IMG/VR virus record: IMGVR_UViG_3300045988_119718
Location: 96,001 to 160,000 of that record
Length of the DNA stretch: 64,000 nucleotides
DNA from: a virus
Strand: one strand, 5' to 3'
Shown: piece after piece, positions 1,850 through 62,394 of the stretch
Numbering within the stretch: the stretch's first letter is position 1
Layout: each line of letters begins with the position of its first letter
The notes under the pieces: generated by a model
What the model was told of the DNA's origin: nothing
What the model saw: only the letters and a program-made list of their open reading frames with translations
Databases searched by the model: none
Translations under genes and position numbers: made by a program

Positions 1850-3838
1850 ATGGCTAAAAAAGATCTATATTATAATAATAATGAATCTACTAAACAAATT
1901 ATAACAGAAGTAGAATTAGATAACCATAATACTTCTGATAATGCTCATAAAGAAAAATTTGATAAATATACATTACATACTCCTACTGGAATATGGGATG
2001 CAGTATATCAATTAGGCCCAAATTATAGATTTACTGATCAATCTACTAAAGGATTTGCTAAGTTAGGATTATTTGCATCAGTATATGATACTAAAGACGT
2101 ATTTGAATATCAACCTTCTCAGTTTGGCACTTTATTAAATTTACCTACTACTATAAAAGATAGTAATTTTATTACAGTTACCCAGTTATGGTTTGACCAA
2201 TCTGGGGATTTATTTATTAGAACTGGTACTGTAAATAATCCTATTAATAAACTTCAATTTACTAAAGTAACTTTAATGACTGATGTATTTAATAAATATG
2301 GCAATGAATTCCCAGCTACTAATTTAGTTCCTGGTATGTTATTTTATAGGGCTGATGAAAATAAATTATATGTATATGTGCCTAGTGATAGTAACTCTAA
2401 CTGGAAGATGATTTATGATTTAAATAAAGATGCTAATATAGCAGATGGCTTGTCTCATGCTTGGTATAAATTAGACAATTCTACTAATGATACCAGTATA
2501 CCTAAACTAGCAGAGTCTGAAAACATGAATACGTATATTAAACCTGGTGTATACTCATGCATTTCTGGGCAGATAGCAGGTACTTTAGTAAATAAACCAT
2601 CTGGGGCAAATAGTAACTTTAGATTAATTGTAGAAGAAAATACTCCTGGATATGGAGTACAAAAAGTATTTACTAATAATCCTTGTAAAATTTTTATAAG
2701 AGGCTTTAATACTACTAATAATAAAACTACATTTACAGATTGGAAAACTTTAGTAAATAGCACAGATACAATTTTAAATGCAGAAACAGCAACTAGAGAT
2801 AGTGCTGGTAATGTAATAAAAGATACTTATGTTAAGAAATCTGGAGATATCATGACTGGTGGTATTATCTTTAGTAAATCTGCCACTGGTAATAACTATG
2901 TAGGCCCTGGTGAAGGGGATGTAAGTGATGCTGTAGTTGCTAATCAATCTAATTTAGCAATTAATGGATGGCAGACAGTTGGTGTTAGAAAATCTAGCAG
3001 TGACCCATATACAATTAGTATGAATACTAGAACTGGTGATATCCATACTAAAGGTAGCATCAAAGGAGATAGCACCGCTACATTTACTGGTGCTGTAACT
3101 GCACCTACATTTAATGGTCATGCATCTGAAGCTAGTAAAGTATTAGCAACCAATATTTCTCAAGATACAGTATTGATGGAATCTATCCAAACTGATGGGG
3201 ATGGCTCCAGAATTGTCATAACAGGCGTTGGAGACCATCATGATGGTTGTCATTTAAAATTTCAATTAAACAACTCCGATCCTGGTAATATTGGTAGTCA
3301 AGCAAGCTTCTACCTTGAGCAGTACCATGATAATTATCATACATTAGAAAGTAGGGCTACTCTATTAGATTATGCACATAATACGTCTTTCCCAGGGGTA
3401 TTAACCGCAGCTAGAGTAGTAAATGCTCAGTATAATGACTATGCAGAATTCTTTGAACGTGGCGAAGAAACTGAAGCTGGAGATATTATAGCTTTAGATT
3501 TATCATCTGATGAAGAAAGATATGTTAAAGCTACTCCAAAGAATAGAGTTATAGTAGGAATTCACTCTGATGAATATGCCCATATCATTGGTGGTGAAAA
3601 AGATAAAACCTTAGAAGAGAACTTAAAGAATTTCATTCCTGTTGCATTAGCAGGTCGTGTACATGTTAAAGTATCTGGTGTAGTATATAAAGGGGATAGA
3701 ATTGTTATTAGTAATGGTATGCCTGGTATTGGTATAGCTCTTACTAATAATTCTACTTCTAATAAACAAGTAATTGGTATAGCATTAGAGAATAAATATA
3801 ATCTTGGTATAGGTAAGATTAGATTATTGCTGAAGTGA
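1850..3838 (+). CDS. Tail-fibre protein (662 aa) with a conserved C-terminal domain shared with ORF 29345..30418.
   Basis: Strong RBS AAGGAGG. The C-terminal ~110 aa (YNDYAEFFERGEETEAGDIIALDL...HSDEYAHIIGG..EENLKNFIPVALAGRVHVK) is nearly identical in architecture to the C-terminus of 29345..30418. Confidence 0.55.
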   Translation: MAKKDLYYNNNESTKQIITEVELDNHNTSDNAHKEKFDKYTLHTPTGIWDAVYQLGPNYRFTDQSTKGFAKLGLFASVYDTKDVFEYQPSQFGTLLNLPTTIKDSNFITVTQLWFDQSGDLFIRTGTVNNPINKLQFTKVTLMTDVFNKYGNEFPATNLVPGMLFYRADENKLYVYVPSDSNSNWKMIYDLNKDANIADGLSHAWYKLDNSTNDTSIPKLAESENMNTYIKPGVYSCISGQIAGTLVNKPSGANSNFRLIVEENTPGYGVQKVFTNNPCKIFIRGFNTTNNKTTFTDWKTLVNSTDTILNAETATRDSAGNVIKDTYVKKSGDIMTGGIIFSKSATGNNYVGPGEGDVSDAVVANQSNLAINGWQTVGVRKSSSDPYTISMNTRTGDIHTKGSIKGDSTATFTGAVTAPTFNGHASEASKVLATNISQDTVLMESIQTDGDGSRIVITGVGDHHDGCHLKFQLNNSDPGNIGSQASFYLEQYHDNYHTLESRATLLDYAHNTSFPGVLTAARVVNAQYNDYAEFFERGEETEAGDIIALDLSSDEERYVKATPKNRVIVGIHSDEYAHIIGGEKDKTLEENLKNFIPVALAGRVHVKVSGVVYKGDRIVISNGMPGIGIALTNNSTSNKQVIGIALENKYNLGIGKIRLLLK

Positions 3839-20935: not shown

Positions 20936-20976
20936 TGTATTGAAGCTAGATATCTAGCTTCAATACATTTTTATTT
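20936..20976 (+). terminator. Rho-independent terminator.
   Basis: Hairpin TTGAAGCTAGATATCTAGCTTCAA followed by a T-run. Confidence 0.45.
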
Positions 20977-21001
20977 ATATTTCTTAAGGAGGAAATATAC
21001 C

Positions 21002-52375: not shown

Positions 52376-53025
52376 TGATGGTATATGAATTAAAATCTAT
52401 TCCATTATATACTAATTCATCTGAACAATCTTATGGTTGGTTTATTATTTACAATAATCATTCCATTGTATATGAGCATACTAGCTATGCTCATATACAA
52501 TATTCAACTATTTCTAAAGATAATATCAATCTATTTGGATTATATGGGAATGATTTTAAATTAGTTTCCAACTTCTCAGATGGATCTATGTATATTTATT
52601 GGAAAGATAATCTGATTACTAAATTTAATTTTCTATTGTCAAATAAAGCAATAGAAACGAATTTAAACTCACATGTATACCATTGTAGACCATTTCATTT
52701 AAAAAGTTTTATTTATGATTTCAATATGTTTAATGCCATTAATTCTAATGGATATATGACTAATAAATATTACTCTGGGTATAATGGGTTGATTTTAGCC
52801 AATAATTATCCATTAAAAGTAAAGCAGTACTTCTCTATAGACTTAATGGATCATCCTAAGGAGTTAGCTATAATAACTAAATTAGAAAAAATAAAAGATA
52901 TTGAATATCCAAAAGATAATTTTATATTCTCAGTAATTAAGAATGATAAAATTTCTAAAGACAATTCTCAATTAAACTTATTAAATGATAATGTATTTAA
53001 ACATAAAACTATTTTTAAACTCTAA
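52375..53025 (+). CDS. Hypothetical protein (216 aa).
   Basis: ORF. Overlaps the upstream stop (ATGA). Confidence 0.4.
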   Translation: MMVYELKSIPLYTNSSEQSYGWFIIYNNHSIVYEHTSYAHIQYSTISKDNINLFGLYGNDFKLVSNFSDGSMYIYWKDNLITKFNFLLSNKAIETNLNSHVYHCRPFHLKSFIYDFNMFNAINSNGYMTNKYYSGYNGLILANNYPLKVKQYFSIDLMDHPKELAIITKLEKIKDIEYPKDNFIFSVIKNDKISKDNSQLNLLNDNVFKHKTIFKL

Positions 53026-53068
53026 AGATAGGTGGTGTGCTTAAATTCATATAAGATCATCAGTATAT

Positions 53069-53350
53069 ATGCACATTTTCTATGCATTAATGGCTATTTC
53101 ACTGTTACTAATATCATTATATAAGCTTCAATATAGTAATATAAATGATAGCTTAAAGGAAAATGCTTCTATTAGAGGAAATGCAAATTTATTATATCTT
53201 CAATCCAGCATAAAAAAAGAAAATAGTGTATTAACGTCCATCTATTCTAATAATACTAATAGTAACTTTGATAAAGCCGCTATACAAGCTATTATCAATG
53301 AGCCTAAGATCGTTGGTAATGTGATAGAAACAAAAATATTAGCAAGATAA
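53069..53350 (+). CDS. Small protein with an N-terminal signal or TM segment (93 aa).
   Basis: ORF only. Confidence 0.35.
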   Translation: MHIFYALMAISLLLISLYKLQYSNINDSLKENASIRGNANLLYLQSSIKKENSVLTSIYSNNTNSNFDKAAIQAIINEPKIVGNVIETKILAR

Positions 53351-53378
53351 TTGGATAGCTCTTTATAGAGCTATCCAA
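53351..53378. terminator. Bidirectional terminator.
   Basis: Hairpin TTGGATAGCTCTTTATAGAGCTATCCAA. Confidence 0.5.
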
Positions 53379-53380
53379 TT

Positions 53381-54715
53381 CTATATATTGTTATTTTGGT
53401 CTTTTACTCTATTAGAATATCCTTTTTGAGTATTAATAGCATAGTTATTAATAAACTCTAAGTCTATATAGAATACTAGCTCTGAAGTTCTTTCTACTAA
53501 TGGTTGGTTAGTACTAATTGTATAGGTATTCCAATCTATTTGTATAGGAACTTCTGATAATCCATTAAATAGTTTTACATCCATAAATACTGATGGAGAT
53601 ATAAATATAGACTTAGTGTATTCAGCTATGTCAAATAATGAATTTTCATTTCTAGATTGTATGAGTTCTTTAAAGTGAATTGTAGAAGGTTTATGTTGCT
53701 CATATATATCGTTATCTTCTATATAATCAGTAGTCATATACTGATTCCAGCCTTTATCATTCTTAAATGGTATTGCTCCAATATAGAGATTATAAATAGT
53801 ACATTTTAATGCTTTATCTATTAAAGCAAAATCATGTTTATCTTTAGCATAATAAGCATAGAATTTAGGAGCTGGGAATAAACATTCTATCTGAGTAGAT
53901 ACAACAAAGTTATTGTCTGTTTGACCTTCTCTTTCTCCTTCATCTACTTCTATATCACCACATCTAAGATGTACATACATATCTGTAAGCTTAATAAAGT
54001 ATTCATATTCTCCTTTAGTTCCTCTAAACTTACAAACAAATGGTAATCTAGAGTTCTTATTTAAGAATGATAAGAATTTACAATTATCAACTACCTGTTC
54101 ATTTCTTATCTCGAATCCAGAATCTTTAGCTATAGCCAGCATCAATGCTTTAGGAACATTAAAGTCTATTTCTGCATATCTAGTTTCAGTAGCATTAGCT
54201 CTACATGCAATTTGCATAAACTTGTATAAATCCATAGCGGTATTAAATGAAGATACTTTAATTCTAAATTCAAAATCTACTTTCCATTGTTCTAAAGTAA
54301 GAGAAACCATATTCTTATTAGTAGGGTTTACAAAGAAACAATCTTTAAATCTAGTTCTATTATTAATGATATTTCTTCCTAGTAAGTATAAATCAGTATT
54401 TTCTCTATTAAAAGTATAATCCATTCTAGGTCTAATAGCTAAAGCTGGTTTATTCTTTCTAATATTATTAATCATATCATTAGATAAAAAATCTCTAAGT
54501 ATATTTCTACCAGCTATATATTCTGATTTAAAGAAATCAGGTTGAAATTTATTTTTAAACCATTTTCTCATATATTCTACACAAATAGAATATGATGAAG
54601 AAACCGATGGAATACATAATGACATAGCATATTCATTCTTAAATCGCTTTAAATCTTTTATTGGAGAATCATGAGTAGTTACTAAATATTGAGGGTTATC
54701 ATGATTAAATCCCAT
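53381..54715 (-). CDS. Hypothetical protein (444 aa).
   Basis: ORF only. Confidence 0.4.
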   Translation of the reverse strand: MGFNHDNPQYLVTTHDSPIKDLKRFKNEYAMSLCIPSVSSSYSICVEYMRKWFKNKFQPDFFKSEYIAGRNILRDFLSNDMINNIRKNKPALAIRPRMDYTFNRENTDLYLLGRNIINNRTRFKDCFFVNPTNKNMVSLTLEQWKVDFEFRIKVSSFNTAMDLYKFMQIACRANATETRYAEIDFNVPKALMLAIAKDSGFEIRNEQVVDNCKFLSFLNKNSRLPFVCKFRGTKGEYEYFIKLTDMYVHLRCGDIEVDEGEREGQTDNNFVVSTQIECLFPAPKFYAYYAKDKHDFALIDKALKCTIYNLYIGAIPFKNDKGWNQYMTTDYIEDNDIYEQHKPSTIHFKELIQSRNENSLFDIAEYTKSIFISPSVFMDVKLFNGLSEVPIQIDWNTYTISTNQPLVERTSELVFYIDLEFINNYAINTQKGYSNRVKDQNNNI

Positions 54716-54750
54716 ATTAACTCCTCCTTTCTAAAATTAATGATATGTCC

Positions 54751-54790
54751 AAAAAATAAAGAGATGCTGAATAATCAGCATCTCTTTATA
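54751..54790 (-). terminator. Rho-independent terminator 3' of RNAP beta-prime exon 2.
   Basis: Hairpin AAAGAGATGCTGAATAATCAGCATCTCTTT plus T-run on the minus strand. Confidence 0.5.
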
Positions 54791-54792
54791 GA

Positions 54793-55032
54793 TTAATCAA
54801 TATGGTATTTTTCTTTCAACTGTTGTATCTTCTGTTTCTGCCCTATAGAATAATTATCTCTTCCAATATTGATTAAACCATTAGCATTAATAATCATATC
54901 TTTAAAAATATTCATATCATTGTTAAAGGTTCCATCATTTCTAGAAATCATCATAGAATTTCTTGGATTAAATACTTCCATAGCAGATTCCCAAAACTTT
55001 TTATTTGGCACATAGATAATATTCAAGCAATC
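54793..55032 (-). CDS. rpoC: RNA polymerase beta-prime subunit (N-terminal-half gene), exon 2. It resumes at D of NADFDG|D, then CLNIIYVP...PRNSMMISRNDGTF.
   Basis: After removal of the intron the junction reads AADFDG|DCLNIIYVP. Downstream, NSMMISRNDGTF matches E. coli ALMMSTNNILSPANGEP. The ORF-track entry 54793..55095 extends spuriously into the intron. Confidence 0.6.
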   Translation of the reverse strand, partial: DCLNIIYVPNKKFWESAMEVFNPRNSMMISRNDGTFNNDMNIFKDMIINANGLINIGRDNYSIGQKQKIQQLKEKYHID

Positions 55033-55399
55033 CTTTTTCTTTACATAGGTCGTTAGTCTATGCAGTTCTCTTAAGAACGTCTTATGCGTTAGCATAAGTA
55101 GAGACTATATCTACATCTCATAGAGATGATACGCACTTCGGATACACTTGTATCCTACTCCTTACGGATAGTCGTTGAACAGAATTAGAAATTCATATTT
55201 CTAAAACTTGCTGCTGATTGTACATTGCATATACTTTTAGGATTTCTCCATGAGTAATCTTATAGATTTTTTCTGTATTTCTACTGCATTCACACTTATA
55301 CTTTCTATCGTATTATGTTGTAGCTCTATAAGCTTTAGCACTTTCCAGCAATTCACGTATTTTAAATTACACTATCGCTAGTATAATTGGCAATTATTT
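55033..55399 (-). mobile_element. Group I self-splicing intron (367 nt, no internal ORF) inserted in the NADFDGD codons of the RNAP beta-prime gene.
   Basis: On the minus strand: P AATTGCTGGAAA, Q AATCAGCAGC, R GTTCAACGACTA, S TAGATATAGTC. P7 pairs GACTA with TAGTC. The exon ends in U (GGU) and pairs with the IGS GCCA. The intron ends in G before GAT. Splicing restores an in-frame DFDGD. Confidence 0.7.
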
Positions 55400-56773
55400 A
55401 CCATCGAAGTCTGCTGCCATAGTTGCAAGAATCTGTAAAGGCATACCCATTGTGTAGTCATCATTAATAGCTACACATTGTACTGCCAGAATAGAACCAT
55501 AATTAATTGTAGGATTACGATTAATCAATACATTAATACCAGAAGTATCGATGATATTTTGAATAATATCTCTAATACGTTTATCCTCTTTCAGTAATCC
55601 TTGCTTATATCTCATATATGCTGTATTATATGAAATATTATAAGTTCTTACTAAAATATTAATTACAGTCTGTTGAAGTAATTCCAATAATGTAAAATAA
55701 GATAATGTAACCTGATCTACTCTAAGTTTAGGGTCGGGAACAATAACTGATCTAGATGTAAATCCACATCTACCACCAATCAGTCTTTTAATAACACCAT
55801 TCTTATCTTTGCAGATATTAATTACTTCAGTATACAGCTCCAGATATCTCTGTTGAAGATTCCACAATAGTACATTTCTATGTTTTGGAATTCTGTAAAT
55901 AGACAATGTGTCATCATTAATCTTAGCTGCTAACTTAGCCATCATATTATAGATACCATTGGTTTTTTCATATGTAAATCTACCATCTCTTCTATCAAAT
56001 GGTCTAAGAGCTGTAGAATACACTGGAATACTATGAATAAAGATTTTATCTCTATTCTCTAAGATATCTTGATAATAATCAGGTTTCTTATTTTTATTCT
56101 TCTTATGAAAATATTCTAGGATTTCATCAAATCTATGATAAAATTCAATCAATCCAATTCCTTTATACTTTTCATCTAACTTAGTCTTTCTAGTAGACCT
56201 CTTAGCTGTAGATTTAATAATTTTAGAAGAATACTTTTGTACTGGTTTACCATTTTCATCGAGATCAATAATTGGTTCTACAATAGAAGCAAACTGATCT
56301 TTACCAATATAGCTTTCCAATACATAGAATAAATTCGGATGAATAATTGGATATCCTTCTTTAAGAGTAATCCAACCAGTCATCTCAAAATCTTCACCTA
56401 CATAGATTACTCTGGAATGACAATATGGGCAGATCATTCCTTCATAATTCTTCCCTTGTGTTCTTTTGCATTTACAAGAATATCTATCTGTAAATGCATC
56501 AGGGTCTTGCATAGTTTTTGTAAACTTGGATGAGAAAATAGAATTATCGCTTTTTAATCCTACATCAATAGCTTTCTTATCATCCTCAGGTTCATCAATA
56601 ATAAACCCTTTTCCCGATATCAGGTCTTTTGCTTTCTCTTCATCTAGATTTAATCGTAACAACCTAGTTTGGAAAGTAAACTTCTTTGATACTGGATAAT
56701 TAACGGTTAAGTTTAATTCCATATTACTCTCCTTCTCTTTAAAAACAAATAAAAAAGAATGAGTCAAGCTCAT
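55400..56773 (-). CDS. rpoC: RNA polymerase beta-prime subunit (N-terminal-half gene), exon 1 (458 aa, ending ...AADFDG).
   Basis: Zn-finger CKCKRTQGKNYEGMICPYCHSRV (E. coli [23 protein letters not shown]). VLINRNPTINYGSILAV aligns with VLLNRAPTLHRLGIQAF. The ORF stops one codon after DFDG. Confidence 0.7.
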
Positions 56774-56784
56774 TCTTTTTTATA
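56741..56784. terminator. Bidirectional terminator.
   Basis: Hairpin AAGAATGAGTCAAGCTCATTCTT with A/T runs on both sides. Confidence 0.45.
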
Positions 56785-56788
56785 TTAT

Positions 56789-57085
56789 CTACTTGTTTTT
56801 ATCTTTGTCAATCTTAATATGAATACCGCTATCATCTTTTTTAAATTTTATTTTAAGATCAAACAGTATATTTGCAATATCACTAAGTACTCCAGCTACA
56901 CCACTACTTTCTGTTGGGCTATCATCTGGATAATAGTTTCTCTTAATTCTATGAGTATTGGATTTATCAATACGATTAACGACATGTCTCAATTCTTTCT
57001 TTTCATCTGTCATAATAAACATCCTTCCCATAAAAATAATTGTTACTGAATATGATGAGGCATGGTATTCATAGCAAAAATACAA
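56789..57085 (-). CDS. Hypothetical protein (98 aa).
   Basis: ORF only. Confidence 0.35.
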   Translation of the reverse strand: MYFCYEYHASSYSVTIIFMGRMFIMTDEKKELRHVVNRIDKSNTHRIKRNYYPDDSPTESSGVAGVLSDIANILFDLKIKFKKDDSGIHIKIDKDKNK

Positions 57086-57351
57086 CCGTCATCATATGAG
57101 CACTCAGGTATTCCTTTAAGATTGATATCTACATGAGTTAAAGCTTCATTGAAAATATCAAATAAATGCATAATTTTACCGTCTGGATATTTGATTTTCC
57201 AATCCAGCATTCGTCTTATATCAACATTCATCTCGATATCATTATCATTATATAAGGTATATACTTCTTTACCTTTCTCATCGATAATCTTTAACTCATA
57301 ATCAGTATTGTTTTGTATCATCATTATTATCACCTTCTTTACTAACAACAA
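57043..57351 (-). CDS. Hypothetical protein (102 aa).
   Basis: ORF only. Confidence 0.35.
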   Translation of the reverse strand: MLLVKKVIIMMIQNNTDYELKIIDEKGKEVYTLYNDNDIEMNVDIRRMLDWKIKYPDGKIMHLFDIFNEALTHVDINLKGIPECSYDDGCIFAMNTMPHHIQ

Positions 57352-57754
57352 TAGACTGATTATGCCACAACTTAATCATTCTTTTATAAAGCAAATTAAG
57401 CCTTCTTACTTTGTTATACCTTTTAGAAAAAGTATAGTACAAACTAAGAATACAAATATTAGATGGCTTAGGAATGGCAGCAAAATCACTTTCTTGTTTC
57501 GCATCACGTACCATATTCATAATAACCTCAGAATTCCAAACAAGATTTCCATGATTATCGTAAATGTCACTCATTGGATTATCAATAATTTGTTTATCGA
57601 AATCATACAACGCATTATAAACCTCAGGTTTATAATTACCATTAGCATCTTTACATACGCTAAAGAAATACCTTTCAATAGCTGTTGTAGGAATAGCGAT
57701 AACGTTTGTAGGCAAACGATCATTAGAACCTTTTTTATCAAATACTAATTTCAT
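57302..57754 (-). CDS. Hypothetical protein (150 aa); paralog of 57941..58378.
   Basis: Shared core ..PTT..E...F......GN.KP.VYN.LY.....I.DN...D.Y. Confidence 0.4.
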   Translation of the reverse strand: MKLVFDKKGSNDRLPTNVIAIPTTAIERYFFSVCKDANGNYKPEVYNALYDFDKQIIDNPMSDIYDNHGNLVWNSEVIMNMVRDAKQESDFAAIPKPSNICILSLYYTFSKRYNKVRRLNLLYKRMIKLWHNQSIVVSKEGDNNDDTKQY

Positions 57755-57797
57755 TTTAATTACTCCTTTACTTCATACAAAATAAGTGCTACAAAAT

Positions 57798-57953
57798 TCA
57801 TATACACATGATCCCCAGTAGATGAAGTTTTATATCAATAATTTTACCTTTATCCTCTGCTTGAATTTCTGTAATACGTTCATTAATTAAACTTTCTATA
57901 GAATAATCACGATCAGTTACAGTATTATATTTAACGCACGCTACTTGTACCAT
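57798..57953 (-). CDS. Small ORF (51 aa, MVQVACVKYNTVTDRDYSIESLINERITEIQAEDKGKIIDIKLHLLGIMCI) with a strong RBS.
   Basis: GGAGGAAG lies 6 nt upstream of the ATG in an unannotated gap. Confidence 0.3.
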   Translation of the reverse strand: MVQVACVKYNTVTDRDYSIESLINERITEIQAEDKGKIIDIKLHLLGIMCI

Positions 57954-58378
57954 TTTTCTTCCTCCGTATCTTTGAGTAAAATATCTATACCAGCCTTAAT
58001 AATTTTATCTGTCATTTCACGATTATTATTAATAGTATAGAATAAGTCGATCAAGCACAAAGTACTAGGCTTTAGAAATGGTAATTTTTTTATAGTCCAC
58101 TTATCTTCTTCTTTATCACGCAACCTTTCTACTTCATCCTTAATAATTTGGGATGCAATATATGCATCCCTATTGTCATCACCATAACTATCATGAAAAA
58201 TATTATCAACAATACCATCTCTGTAATTGTATAACATATTATACACAGATGGTTTAATATTTCCATGCTCATCAGTGGACTTCTTAATAAATTCTTTCTC
58301 CTCTTCTGTTGTTGGAACACAACAGATTCGATTTTTTTCAAATAATAAGCATTCATCATCATCAACACGAATTATCAT
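57941..58378 (-). CDS. Hypothetical protein (145 aa); paralog of 57302..57754.
   Basis: See above. Confidence 0.4.
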   Translation of the reverse strand: MIIRVDDDECLLFEKNRICCVPTTEEEKEFIKKSTDEHGNIKPSVYNMLYNYRDGIVDNIFHDSYGDDNRDAYIASQIIKDEVERLRDKEEDKWTIKKLPFLKPSTLCLIDLFYTINNNREMTDKIIKAGIDILLKDTEEEKWYK

Positions 58379-58755: not shown

Positions 58756-60012
58756 TCACTTCTTTAATCCGAATGCTTTCCATACATCTATTTCATGAAG
58801 TTTAACTGTAGAGTCATGGAATGCCTTTAATGCTTTAAGCTTTAATGCTGATGCTACTTGTGGCATAGCAACACCAATATCTTTAAATCCCGCTCTATAG
58901 AATAGATTTCCTGCACATACATTACAAATCTTATTAGGTTCTTTATATTCACATAAAGAAGAGAATCTCATTCTAACTGTTTTACCTAAATATTTATCTT
59001 TATTAGTAGAATTCAATTCTATAAGTTTATTTCCTTCTACTATATAAGAATACATCATAAGTTTAATATTATACTTATCTAATGTAATTTCTATAGTTCT
59101 CTTAGTACCACAATCAGTTCCTTTAGGAGCTAAAGTAAGATGCTGAAATGCTCTTAATAATAGTTTTTCATTGTACCCGCCTTCAGGGGTCTTCTTAGAT
59201 CTAGAATATGGGCCAGCTGCTAATGCTTTAGCTAATTTAGAATAATCATCTCTAGAAATACCATCAATGTAACTTGACATAGCTACGTCATAACCCTTAG
59301 TAGGGTCTGGGTCTTTAATAGCACCTTTCATTACAAAGATATTTTTAAAGTTATTAGCAAAAGAACCTTTAGCTTTGGAATCATACATATCCATAGATAT
59401 ATCATCTTTAAGTTCTTTTTTAGCATAGTCTAATAATTCTTTTTCTATCTTATCCGCAGCATACATATTTCTTTCTGGATCTGCTAATTCATCTGCATAT
59501 TTCTTTTCTAATTGTTTTTTCATTTTATCAATCTTATAAGAAATAGTAAGCATGTTTGTAGTAAATCCAGAGCATAGTATATTACAATAAGGCTGGAATT
59601 TCTGCTGTCTCATTAAATATCTTTTTAATGCAGACAATGGTAATCTATCTTCCATAATAGCATATGAAATCTGATCATTCATATCGCCTAATACATCTTT
59701 ATTTATAGGCTTATTGATATAATGGAATAAATCAAATAAGTCTTGTTCTATAAAACACTTATTGAACCACCATCTACCTAAAGTAGTAGTAAAAGTATTT
59801 TTATTCTTCTTATTACCAATACCATAAGAATTAGGTGGAATAGTAATAATATCATATGTATTATACTTTGGTGCTTTACCATTTAAAGTACCAAAAGTTT
59901 CCATAAGTTTAGAAAGAGATTCTACATCTTTTTGAGATAAATTTAAAAAATAATCTACTTCATCTTTGTTTGTAATCTTTCTAGCAACACGTTTGTTAGT
60001 AGATACTGCCAT
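58756..60012 (-). CDS. Hypothetical protein (418 aa).
   Basis: ORF with its own RBS AAGGTGG inside the 3' end of the HNH gene. Confidence 0.4.
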   Translation of the reverse strand: MAVSTNKRVARKITNKDEVDYFLNLSQKDVESLSKLMETFGTLNGKAPKYNTYDIITIPPNSYGIGNKKNKNTFTTTLGRWWFNKCFIEQDLFDLFHYINKPINKDVLGDMNDQISYAIMEDRLPLSALKRYLMRQQKFQPYCNILCSGFTTNMLTISYKIDKMKKQLEKKYADELADPERNMYAADKIEKELLDYAKKELKDDISMDMYDSKAKGSFANNFKNIFVMKGAIKDPDPTKGYDVAMSSYIDGISRDDYSKLAKALAAGPYSRSKKTPEGGYNEKLLLRAFQHLTLAPKGTDCGTKRTIEITLDKYNIKLMMYSYIVEGNKLIELNSTNKDKYLGKTVRMRFSSLCEYKEPNKICNVCAGNLFYRAGFKDIGVAMPQVASALKLKALKAFHDSTVKLHEIDVWKAFGLKK

Positions 60013-60015
60013 TTA

Positions 60016-61068
60016 TTAGCTCACCACCTTTTTATATATTCTACCTTTATAAACATTAGAGGCAACTATACCATTTAATCTATTTTTTATATTGCCTCTA
60101 TCTTTTTCAACATAATTATTAGCTCTAAGATATTTATTTAACCCTCTATATTTTCCTATAAATTCATTAGTGGCTTCGTCATATACTTCAAATTCAAGAT
60201 TATACCTTCTATTATTAGATTGCTCTTCTTGTGTTGCCCATGTACAATTTTCAGGAGAATAGTCTTTATTTACATCTATTCTATCCATAGTTGTATTTAT
60301 TAATCCATGTTTATCAGCAAATTCTTTAAAAGAGTTCCAATTATCTAAAAAATAATTATGGAAATCATGCCATCTATCACAAACTTTTATACCTCTCCCG
60401 CCATATAACTTGTAACGATTATTAGATGGATTATAACGTTGCATCATACCTCTCCATCTTTTATAAAAAGCTCTATATGAAGGATCAGTTCTATCCTCGA
60501 TTTCGTTGTAAATTAAATGAGAATATTCATCATGCTTAGTTCCATGCCTTTTACAAAAATTACTGTAATATATTTCTTTTGTATATCCGCAAATTTTACA
60601 TTTAGCTAAAAATCTAGGCATATTATTTTTATATCCTAAAAATTTAATTAATACCATATCTTCAATAGTTTCTCCGACTTTTTCTTTATAATAATCTTCT
60701 TCACAATTTAGCCTATTGTGAAAATAATTATATTTTATAAAATTACTTTTTAATACTTTTTTTATATGCCCACATTTAGTGCATTGAATATTGCAGTATT
60801 GCTCATTACGATCTGTATACTCATCTAAAAGCTCTTTAAACTTATAATCAGTTCTAACTACATTTTTCAAAAAATCTTCATTGCAAGTATCTAGCGAATG
60901 CTTATAATGATATAACGTAATACTCTGCTTTGTTATATGTTTAATATGACCGCATTTAGTGCATTGAATAGTATAAACAGGGGCATAATGTTTATTTCTT
61001 CCATCATACGATATAATTTGGTAATCACCGATTATTTCTCCGACTAAATCTGAATAATTAGTTTTCAT
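60016..61068 (-). CDS. HNH homing endonuclease (350 aa) with three N-terminal Zn-ribbon-like repeats (C.KCGHIK).
   Basis: HNH_3-type motif: FYKRWRGMMQRY...GGRGIKVCDRWHDF...DRIDVNKDYSPENCTWATQEEQSNN. Strong RBS AAAAGGAG. Confidence 0.7.
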   Translation of the reverse strand: MKTNYSDLVGEIIGDYQIISYDGRNKHYAPVYTIQCTKCGHIKHITKQSITLYHYKHSLDTCNEDFLKNVVRTDYKFKELLDEYTDRNEQYCNIQCTKCGHIKKVLKSNFIKYNYFHNRLNCEEDYYKEKVGETIEDMVLIKFLGYKNNMPRFLAKCKICGYTKEIYYSNFCKRHGTKHDEYSHLIYNEIEDRTDPSYRAFYKRWRGMMQRYNPSNNRYKLYGGRGIKVCDRWHDFHNYFLDNWNSFKEFADKHGLINTTMDRIDVNKDYSPENCTWATQEEQSNNRRYNLEFEVYDEATNEFIGKYRGLNKYLRANNYVEKDRGNIKNRLNGIVASNVYKGRIYKKVVS

Positions 61069-61557
61069 ATGCTAATATCTCCTTTTATTTTTATATTAAT
61101 ATAAGTGCTATAAAAACTAATTATTAATTTTTGGTTTTATTGTATTTTTAGAAGTAAATACTATAGTTAATAGTTATTGACTTACGTAAATCGATCAATG
61201 CATTTTTATTCGCTTAGAGTCGTTAATTCTAAACCGCTTATTTAAAGCCGCTTTATGTCTCCATAAAGAGTAGATCATATCATAATCTCTATTAAAGAGA
61301 TTTCTCCCATTTCCACCCACTTGGATGTACGTCATAAAGACTGATCGTTGAACCTTCTCTATAAAAGAGCTTGGCTGCTGATTGTGCATTGTTTATACCT
61401 TTTAGGTTTTAGCCATGAGGCATCATAAAGATTGTTTCTGTTTTTCAACAACCTATGTTTAAAATATAGGTTCTTTATGCTTTAGCAGTTTCCAGCAATT
61501 AAGGAGATTTGCAAATCTATATCGCTATAGACTGGAACCATTGAATAATAATATAGC
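61069..61557 (-). mobile_element. Second group I intron-like element, homologous to 55033..55399. Its boundaries and exons are not resolved.
   Basis: P AATTGCTGGAAA, Q AATCAGCAGC, R GTTCAACGATCA, S TATGATATGATC. The P7 pairing has co-varied to GATCA/TGATC. The embedded ORF 61195..61389 is probably spurious. Confidence 0.5.
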
Positions 61558-62394
61558 TTAACGCTTGTTATTATCGCTTAATTCATTTGGTATGTTTAAC
61601 CTAGTTACAGGTCTGATATTCATATATTCAGCATTATCCACTGTATCAGACAATTTACCATCTGTTTTTACATAACCAGTACAAAGAGAGATAGAGTTAA
61701 TTCTAGCATCATTCAATCCTGTACCATAAAAGAAAAAGTCTCTACAATCGTCTTTGGTAATAGACATCTGCATTGAAACTATAGATTCTACTTCCATATC
61801 AGTAGACTCTTGTGTTGTATATACATTAGCGTCTATAGGAGTACCATCTGTAAATTGCTGTGTAAATACTGGATTAGAATCAAACTTCTTAAAGTAATAT
61901 GCGATTCTATCTGATTTCTCTTTTCTACCAAAGTAAGTACCAGTCTTAGTATAGTCTCTCTGTACTGGGGTTAAATCAGTATCTGGAGTGGTGTATCTAA
62001 ATGGAACAATACCACCATAAGTATCTGTATAAGCTGGATTAATCCATGAAGCATATTTAGCTGCATATACTTGTGAATTTTCTCTACCGCAGCCATCTGT
62101 ACCTACACAGAACAAGCATACTTTTTCTAGTTTATTTTCAGTATTAGATTCTTCAGAATTAGCAAAAGTAAAATCAAGCATAGAATTATAGTTCGGTGTC
62201 TTTTCAGGTTCATCAATATCAAATAACAACCTAGCTATAAATCCACCACCAGCTAATGTCATAATATTATGAGTTGTGAATAATACTTCCCCAGTATCAG
62301 TATACCATGCTTTAATAACTGTTTTAAAATTAGTACGTTCACCAGTTATACCCATGGTATCTTTTAGAGATAAAGGTTTATTTATAATAGACAT
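61558..62394 (-). CDS. Hypothetical protein (278 aa). It lies immediately 5' of the intron-like element, so its 3' end may be misdefined.
   Basis: ORF only. Confidence 0.4.
   Translation of the reverse strand: MSIINKPLSLKDTMGITGERTNFKTVIKAWYTDTGEVLFTTHNIMTLAGGGFIARLLFDIDEPEKTPNYNSMLDFTFANSEESNTENKLEKVCLFCVGTDGCGRENSQVYAAKYASWINPAYTDTYGGIVPFRYTTPDTDLTPVQRDYTKTGTYFGRKEKSDRIAYYFKKFDSNPVFTQQFTDGTPIDANVYTTQESTDMEVESIVSMQMSITKDDCRDFFFYGTGLNDARINSISLCTGYVKTDGKLSDTVDNAEYMNIRPVTRLNIPNELSDNNKR

Follow-up and report, generated by a model that had tools for sequence, protein, structure and literature searches.

The closest described counterpart of the element analyzed here lies in gene g270 of phage AR9, which encodes the N-terminal piece of the β′ subunit (β′N) of the non-virion RNA polymerase (nvRNAP) and is entered in GenBank as a two-piece joined coding sequence with the HNH homing endonuclease gene g271 inside. 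Alignment of the intron-less relative Goe21 to AR9 as positions 1–1119 and 1120–1281 places the AR9 intron (897 nt) between GGT (Gly373) and GAC (Asp374) of DYDGD; the AR9 introns reportedly self-splice. In the solved structure of the AR9 nvRNAP, DYDGD (residues 370–374) is the catalytic motif (PMC9209446). The element studied here spans positions 55399..55033 on the minus strand of a 64,000-nt stretch of viral DNA (positions 96,001 to 160,000 of IMG/VR record IMGVR_UViG_3300045988_119718; hereafter, the window). We consider it very probably a functional group I intron of subgroup IA type, devoid of any open reading frame (ORF), in the nvRNAP β′N subunit gene of an uncultivated jumbo phage of ~250 kb. 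This reading is carried by observed sequence features, exact excisability, structural covariation, and a three-state polymorphism among relatives. An earlier note, made from the sequence alone, had known of no commonly reported group I intron in a phage RNA polymerase (RNAP) β′ gene, a suggestion of novelty that AR9 g270, interrupted at the identical DYDG/D position (a slash marks a splice junction throughout), contradicts. The kind of element and its exact site are already known; the novelty lies in the lineage, the lack of an ORF, and the polymorphism within the population.

The AR9/PBS1 g270 intron and the window intron share codon boundary and phase, with exon 1 ending in GGT and exon 2 starting with GAY within DFDG/D or DYDG/D. 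They differ in internal guide sequence (GCCGU in AR9 versus GCCA), in size and content (897 nt with an endonuclease versus 367 nt, ORF-less), and in host (a Bacillus phage versus an uncultivated gut-type jumbo phage). Specifically, AR9 g271 (NUMOD4 + HNH_3) is located between the P4–P6 region and P7 and is homologous to the endonuclease of sibling genomes described below (E 2e-11). No nucleotide similarity between the two ribozymes was detected by blastn, and the same site is therefore held by different ribozyme lineages.

Other jumbo-phage RNAP genes are interrupted as well. The virion RNAP β gene of PhiPA3 (gp211/209) contains a putative group I intron with the HNH nicking endonuclease gp210 (Birkholz et al. 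2024, PMC11620839). Like the window intron, it sits in a multisubunit RNAP gene of a jumbo phage, right after conserved acidic residues, and has intron-minus relatives; it differs in residing in β rather than β′, at another motif, and in retaining its endonuclease. A competitive advantage of the PhiPA3 intron has been shown experimentally, with its endonuclease acting against PhiKZ (PMC11620839), whereas the window intron is known from sequence. The virion RNAP β′N genes of AR9/PBS1 harbor group I and group II self-splicing introns with homing endonucleases (PMC12350094). They are likewise β′N-type jumbo-phage RNAP genes invaded by introns, but they belong to the virion-RNAP paralog, and their endonucleases are of the CapR/EDxHD family (PMC12350094), whereas the CapR-domain endonuclease of the window (61068..60016) is free-standing and lies outside the β′N intron. 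An exon junction is also predicted in the RNAP β gene of Staphylococcus phage MarsHill.

Judging from general knowledge and PMC12908238, the classical phage IA2 introns, i.e., those with I-HmuI-type HNH nickases (SPO1/SP82 DNA polymerase, Bastille, and Twort) and T4 td/nrdB/sunY, resemble the window intron in interrupting an essential nucleic-acid enzyme at its most conserved codons, in a P7.1/P7.2 architecture as we read it in the window copy, in an early in-frame stop, and in presence/absence polymorphism among close relatives. With the sibling copies of the window intron they further share an endonuclease of the HNH_3 type, placed in a peripheral loop. In contrast, their host genes serve DNA metabolism rather than transcription, and the window copy lacks an endonuclease. 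Finally, gut jumbo ("Jug") and crAss-like phages are described in the available part of one report as having many short ORF-less group I introns that split essential genes, some with splicing confirmed by metatranscriptome reads (PMC12880540). As uncultivated gut phages with short ORF-less introns, the Jug phages resemble the present one, but they form another clade (360–402 kb, Bacteroides), and that part of the report does not mention introns in RNAP subunits (PMC12880540).

Boundaries, structure, and covariation of the 367-nt element

The interrupted ORF ends in GCA GCA GAC TTC GAT GGT AAA TAA. Its product contains a Zn-finger (CKCKRTQGKNYEGMICPYCHSRV) and the stretch ...NRNPTINYGSILAV... 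(segment NRNPTINYGS) and terminates in AADFDG-K-stop. It matches Pfam RNA_pol_Rpb1_2 (4.3e-09) and PHROG 2987, "RNA polymerase beta subunit" (5.6e-57), and it bears the β′ hallmarks, i.e., a Zn-binding CX2C...CX2C, the NR.P motif, and the D.D.D Mg2+ loop within the double-psi beta-barrel. Searched against phage genomes (tblastn), the predicted spliced protein hit the nvRNAP β′N subunits of phiR1-37 (g274), AR9/PBS1 (g270), BpSp, and Staphylococcus jumbo phages, with AR9 g270 being the ortholog of the interrupted gene (29% amino acid identity, E 5e-30). The AR9 match broke off at the junction. At the nucleotide level, the locus had no match among 50,697 phage records (megablast).

The end of exon 1 at 55400 agrees with the earlier note, which had placed its start 51 nt too far upstream, at ATG 56773. 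That codon lies inside a terminator-like hairpin and is therefore not the start codon. We assigned the start to ATG 56722 (MELNL...) because all homologs begin MELNL/MDLDL; a ribosome-binding site precedes it (Table 1). Terminator-like hairpins flank the gene on both sides with none between, and exon 1, intron, and exon 2 are thus predicted to be one transcription unit.

The junctions are fixed by DNA alleles that lack the element. The predicted spliced protein has uninterrupted homologs in the protein database, namely P0001 (520 aa, 98% identical), P0002 (520 aa, 89%), and P0003 (521 aa, 82%). All three read ...MAADFDGDCLNIIYVPNKKFW... across the junction and agree with exon 2 in its reading; in near-identical metagenomic phages, the uninterrupted 520-aa gene reads ...AADFDGDCLNIIYVP.... 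The P0001 contig (L010) has the same neighbor genes and is colinear with window positions 58000..55401 and 55032..53001 at 93–95% nucleotide identity (blastn), lacking exactly 55399..55033. Eight more intron-less contigs (L199–L206) show the same exact 367-nt absence, and the insertion is therefore fixed to the base. The final base of exon 1 is T55400 and that of the intron is G55033 (ω-G), the terminal U and G that the earlier note had expected. Joining GGT/GAT is in frame and gives AADFDG/DCLNIIYVP; that is, the spliced junction would read ...GACTTCGATGGT/GATTGCTTGAAT..., and unspliced RNA would run on into AAATAATTGCC. The restoration of the aspartate triad and the in-frame continuation of the downstream segment, both proposed beforehand, are borne out by this comparison.

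An Rfam scan of 901 nt returned a full-length match (model 1–253) to Intron_gpI (RF00028) at 55409..55081 on the minus strand (50.0 bits, E 1.4e-11; gathering score, 50.0). The 3′ splice site lies 48 nt beyond the end of the model, with the P9.1 and P9.2 hairpins in between. A 3′ splice site at the model end itself (G55081) would be in frame but would yield DFDG-TFLREL..., which no homolog reads and which the intron-less DNA excludes.

All four core strings (P, Q, R, and S) named in the earlier note are present within the element on the minus strand (Table 1). P1 had been described there as UGGU paired with GCCA; the pairing and the U·G wobble at the splice site (U55400·G55391) stand, but the helix comprises 6 bp rather than 4, with UGGU/AA facing UUGCCA. 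Directly adjoining P1, intron AAUU (55395..55392) can pair with exon 2 GAUU (55032..55029) as P10. The unconstrained minimum free energy (MFE) fold recovers P1, P2, P3, P4–P5–P6 (with a large P5 extension), P7.1, P7.2, P8, P9, P9.1, and P9.2; its z-score is −3.3, and none of 100 shuffled sequences folds equally well. In our reading, the location of P7.1 and P7.2 between P7 and P3′ points to subgroup IA (IA2-like).

Covariation was assessed by RNAalifold and by pair counting on MAFFT alignments of related introns, comprising those that IMG/VR relatives carry in this gene and a second intron of the window. In the RNAalifold consensus of nine related introns, 29 of the 57 pairs show changes on both sides. 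An explicit P7/P7.1/P7.2/P8/P9/P9.1/P9.2 model, from which the NAD/F introns were omitted for poor MAFFT alignment in their 3′ half, leaves 82% of the cells paired versus 30–46% with the partners slid. It contains 15 pairs with compensatory changes, a value that 0 of 500 shuffles reach, although shuffle statistics overstate significance here since the related introns share descent. The nearest other copy (L004) differs from the window intron at 13 of 367 nt; five of these differences fall in P9, where every pair is kept (two double changes and one G-C to G·U). Among the related introns, P9.2 shows compensatory changes as well, as do P7, P8, and P9. The P4/P5 motif is found at more than 120 loci.

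Table 1. Coordinates of the β′N gene, its intron, and related intron sites (window positions unless a contig is named)
Feature	Position	Strand	Detail or basis
Exon 1, nvRNAP β′N subunit gene	55400..56722	−	441 codons, end ...MAADFDG
Exon 2	54793..55032	−	79 codons + stop; starts with GAT (third catalytic Asp): DCLNIIYVPNKKFW...KYHID-stop
Ribosome-binding site AAGGAGAG	56727..56734	−	4 nt upstream of ATG 56722
Terminator-like hairpin upstream of gene	56749..56783	−	15-bp stem + T run; encloses the first ATG of the raw ORF (56773)
Terminator-like hairpin just after stop codon	54756..54789	−	3′ bound of the predicted transcription unit
Group I intron, ORF-less, 367 nt, IA-like (P7.1/P7.2 + P9.1/P9.2)	55033..55399	−	Rfam, intron-less alleles, fold, covariation
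In-frame TAA, two codons into intron	55394..55396	−	GGT/AAA TAA
P1 with internal guide sequence	55388..55403	−	exon UGGU + intron AA (55403..55398) with UUGCCA (55393..55388)
P element AATTGCTGGAAA	55342..55353	−	string located in sequence
Q element AATCAGCAGC	55210..55219	−	string located in sequence
R element GTTCAACGACTA	55169..55180	−	string located in sequence
S element TAGATATAGTC	55103..55113	−	string located in sequence
P3	GCGUAU (55134..55129) with AUACGU (55360..55355)	−	forms pseudoknot with P7
P4	UGCUGG (55350..55345, in P element) with UCAGCA (55217..55212, in Q element)	−	invariant across nine related introns
P6 hairpin UUAGAAAU-AUGA-AUUUCUAA	55185..55204	−	loop 55196..55193
Catalytic core, 3′ domain	55103..55180	−	Rfam match; helices located by reading
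P7	GACUAU (55173..55168, from R element) with AUAGUC (55108..55103, in S element)	−	compensatory changes
P7.1 CC-GUAA-GG, 2 bp	55160..55167	−	fold, reading
P7.2 GGAUAC-AAGU-GUAUCC	55140..55155	−	fold; compensatory changes
P8	55114..55128	−	compensatory changes
P9	55081..55098	−	5 differences from L004, pairing kept
P9.1	55065..55078	−	MFE fold
P9.2	55044..55062	−	MFE fold
Intron tail UAAAGAAAAAG	after P9.2, ending at ω-G 55033	−
NRN/P intron site in relatives	L006, L007, L186, L188
PSI/N intron site in relatives	L005, L007
NAD/FDGD intron site in relatives	L005, L006, L186
DFD/GD intron site in a relative	L190 2442-3447		with NUMOD4 + HNH_3 endonuclease homologous to AR9 g271
Introns in relatives, L005	4194-4570, 4668-5022
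Introns in relatives, L006	4186-4571, 4677-5034
Introns in relatives, L007	4186-4570, 4579-4931

Three states of the DFDG/D site among close relatives

The intron-plus allele is widespread. The exact sequence of the exon 1 product (442 aa, P0121) occurs on 116 contigs of up to 267 kb, one contig (L198, ENA ERZ27229725) matches the window at 100% identity along 3.7 kb, and the sequence therefore represents a circulating allele rather than an assembly artefact. Within a single 90%-identity protein cluster, among the matches listed, intron-plus products of 442 aa (one of 441 aa) are found on ~144 contigs and intron-less 520-aa products on ~60, revealing presence/absence polymorphism at the DFDG/D site among close relatives.

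A third state is represented by three genomes (L192, L195 [= GCA_902731155.1], and L197), which carry the same intron at the same site in a form of 1060–1061 nt, with a ribozyme 99–100% identical to that of the window. The extra 693 nt are inserted in the P6 loop (window 55196..55193) and encode a 229-aa HNH_3 endonuclease, which in L195 occupies 2742-3428. In comparison, the window copy contains no ORF and hence no intron-encoded homing endonuclease. Empty site, intron with endonuclease, and intron alone thus co-circulate in one closely related population. A homing intron that gains and loses its endonuclease should give this three-state pattern, and the homing character that the earlier note had assumed from the insertion site alone gains support from both the near-identical intron-less genomes and those with the HNH_3 gene in P6.

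The bases flanking the site also vary. All nine intron-plus alleles examined have GGT/GAT at the junction. Close intron-less alleles (those in the ≥90% cluster) fall into two haplotypes: GGT GAT (L199–L202), which equals the spliced junction, and GGA GAC (L010 and L203–L206), in which both wobble bases flanking the site are changed; more distant intron-less alleles read GGA GAT (L131) and GGT GAT (L133). GGA GAC would also weaken P1 and P10. The junction haplotypes are candidates for susceptible and resistant homing sites, or may be the trace of precise intron loss.

Further introns and neighboring genes

The same sequence family has a second group I member in the window, at 61580..61201 on the minus strand (380 nt; Intron_gpI at 61556..61251, 64.0 bits, E 8.6e-16) which parts the last 17 codons from a 278-aa ORF of unknown function (61558..62394). 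Its 5′ splice site follows T61581, its ω-G is 61201, and exon 2 covers 61200..~61148. The junction predicted from P1 (GAAU with GUUC) and P10 (CAUUGA with UCAAUG), ...AATGAAT/CATTGATCG..., yields a product ending in ...RLNIPNE/SLIDLRKSITINYSIYF-stop, and intron-less IMG/VR homologs confirm it (L136: ...NFPNESLIDLRKSITISYAIYF-stop). The L004/L136 genome has the first intron and lacks the second.

Relatives of the β′N gene (~50–60% amino acid identity) contain related group I introns that occupy four further sites, all in one stretch of ~120 nt inside the gene (Table 1). Together with DFDG/D, the active-site region thus holds at least five intron sites within ~120 nt, and truncated database proteins (...PLQVLPG and ...PLGVLSG) suggest still more. 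In one relative (L007), two tandem introns surround a micro-exon of 8–9 nt (CCTTCGAT).

The NRN/P intron of L006 and L007 ends in ...GAAGATAAGA/CCTTCT (L006 4560-4580; L007 4559-4579) and seems to need a final A instead of the near-universal G, because the frame, the invariant NRNPSI, the U·G of P1 (GAAU with GUUC), and the adjacent P10 (CCUU with AAGG) all require A. If the preceding base, a G, served as the end instead, the 5′ splice site would lack a U and the product would read NRK. No change affects the P7 pairs at the G-binding position, and at the same NRN/P site, L186 and L188 have canonical ω-G introns. A separate observation concerns L009 (4198-4579; L008 is 100% identical to it over the shared 1364 nt, up to the end of L008), where a hybrid intron combines a 5′ half of the NRN/P type with a 3′ half of the PSI/N type and the three PSI codons separating these sites in relatives are absent. 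Either the assembly collapsed across tandem homologous introns, or the recombinant is real and lacks three conserved residues.

The window also contains a free-standing endonuclease gene (350 aa, 60016..61068, minus strand; PHROG 374, "HNH endonuclease," 5e-36; Pfam CapR domain), which lies ~80 nt downstream of exon 2 of the second intron, directly upstream of an AR9 g264 homolog. It is also found in L136, which is devoid of the second intron, and it shows no relationship to the HNH_3 endonucleases found in β′N introns. Action in trans at a nearby site (collaborative homing) is conceivable. The AR9 g264 homolog itself (58756..60012, minus strand; virion RNAP subunit, 33% identity) lies ~2 kb upstream of the nvRNAP-type β′N gene, and subunits of both polymerases are therefore encoded within 6 kb. 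The downstream neighbor of the β′N gene (53381..54715, minus strand) encodes a conserved protein of 444 aa with unknown function (PHROG 21946). Elsewhere in the window, at 20937..20998 on the plus strand, a sub-threshold Rfam match to cow-rumen-4 RNA (RF02948; 44.8 bits, E 2.9e-4; gathering score, 48.5) is consistent with a phage of gut or rumen-type origin.

Alternative readings, proposed mechanism, and implications

Several points weigh against a functional IA intron at this site. The Rfam score is exactly at threshold, and the match is lost when the whole window or pooled loci are scanned: neither window intron was matched by Intron_gpI across the 64 kb, whether in a default scan at the gathering threshold or in a permissive one (E ≤ 0.01), and a pooled scan of eight loci (L001 and L004–L010), AR9 included, was equally empty. 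The covariation sample comprises seven to nine sequences from ~4–5 lineages that are kin by descent, making its support qualitative. The IA assignment is our own reading of P7.1/P7.2, with a P7.1 of 2 bp, and does not come from subgroup-specific models. Searches of the window with three HNH_3 endonucleases (tblastn) found no HNH_3 endonuclease gene, so the mobility of this copy is conjecture. Splicing in vivo, moreover, is deduced from DNA and not from RNA.

The empty scans can be accounted for. Long-stretch scans also miss the second intron, even though it scores 14 bits above threshold, whereas scans of ~900 nt find both, and a 1-kb scan of AR9 detects its intron core as two sub-threshold pieces. 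The long-scan misses are due to the speed filters of Infernal. The check for a group I core proposed in the earlier note thus gave a false negative on the whole window at default settings and a match on 901 nt. Given that large-scale scans miss real introns, a negative Intron_gpI scan is not evidence of absence.

Among the alternatives, the one that fares best accepts a true group I intron but supposes that splicing in vivo needs a protein cofactor, for example the sibling HNH protein acting like a maturase, or an RNA chaperone of host or phage origin. The RNA is indeed very AT-rich (33% GC) with short helices (P1 of 6 bp and P7.1 of 2 bp), and many group I introns are generally known to require protein help in vivo. 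However, phage IA2-type introns (T4 td, nrdB, SPO1, and Twort) are generally known to self-splice in vitro, and the endonuclease-less form is common, so there is no dependence on a protein of the intron's own. We regard a cofactor requirement as improbable, and infer that the intron would self-splice in vitro.

A very improbable alternative is a decayed relic that no longer splices, with the β′N gene being a pseudogene or encoding a catalytically dead truncated subunit. The absence of an endonuclease and the threshold Rfam score would agree with decay, but the core helices are all intact and differences from relatives are compensatory. The exons differ from the intron-less L010 allele by 64 synonymous and 8 non-synonymous codon changes, a ratio indicating that they are under purifying selection. 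The identical allele is carried by 116 contigs, the largest of 267 kb, and no second nvRNAP-type β′N gene was seen within the 64 kb of the window. Gene and ribozyme both look functional.

Scarcely credible is a natural gene split, in which residues 1–441 and the exon 2 product would be translated separately and then assemble. In jumbo phages, the N and C pieces of β and β′ have separate genes (PMC7598289), and a shorter second ORF in a different frame from that of exon 1 (54793..55095, containing ...KKK-DCLNIIYVPNKKFW...) opens with ATG 55095 and reads 100 aa in frame with exon 2. That ATG, however, lies in the P9 hairpin, has no ribosome-binding site, and would add 21 unrelated residues; the break would cut through the loop whose three Asp residues bind a single Mg2+; and the intervening segment scores as a group I intron and is missing from sibling genomes, which show no trace of it. 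The remaining candidates were rejected: an intein for want of an in-frame ORF across the element, a group II intron for want of such a match in the presence of a group I core, and translational bypass because a length of 367 nt is excessive for it and the fold accounts for the gap.

For a functional group I intron, we propose the following mechanism. The whole gene would be transcribed as a single RNA, in which the internal guide AAUU-GCCA would align exon 1 (UGGU, with U55400 in the U·G wobble) and exon 2 (GAUU). An external guanosine would attack after U55400, ω-G 55033 would then dock in the P7 pocket, and the resulting ligation of GGU/GAU would restore the DFDGD Mg-binding triad in a 520-aa protein. 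On unspliced RNA, translation would end at the TAA two codons into the intron, giving a truncated protein without the third Asp. The window intron would represent the endonuclease-less form of a mobile homing intron that no longer homes alone and may persist by vertical descent, by recombination, or by an endonuclease acting in trans during co-infection; the direction of endonuclease gain or loss is inferred as well.

By analogy with PhiPA3, we tentatively raise the possibility that the ORF-less intron is, rather than just a selfish remnant, one state of an ongoing interference contest between co-infecting gut jumbo phages. It may act as an immunity allele, as perhaps may GGA GAC, against the endonuclease form as a weapon, because an occupied DFDG/D site destroys the target of the sibling HNH nickase. 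The active-site region of the β′N gene, as an intron hot spot, is in line with such a contest.

The locus has direct consequences for annotation. Gene callers break up an essential polymerase subunit, reporting a fragment of 442 or 459 aa plus a spurious ORF of 62 to 100 aa, protein databases hold the truncated form from >100 contigs, and default Rfam scanning misses the intron, so that RNAP subunits of jumbo phages in metagenomes are systematically mis-annotated. No new kind of element is revealed. Here, three states of the homing-intron cycle can be seen side by side in nature, at the catalytic center of a viral RNA polymerase, and the locus could serve to test intron-mediated competition between phages.

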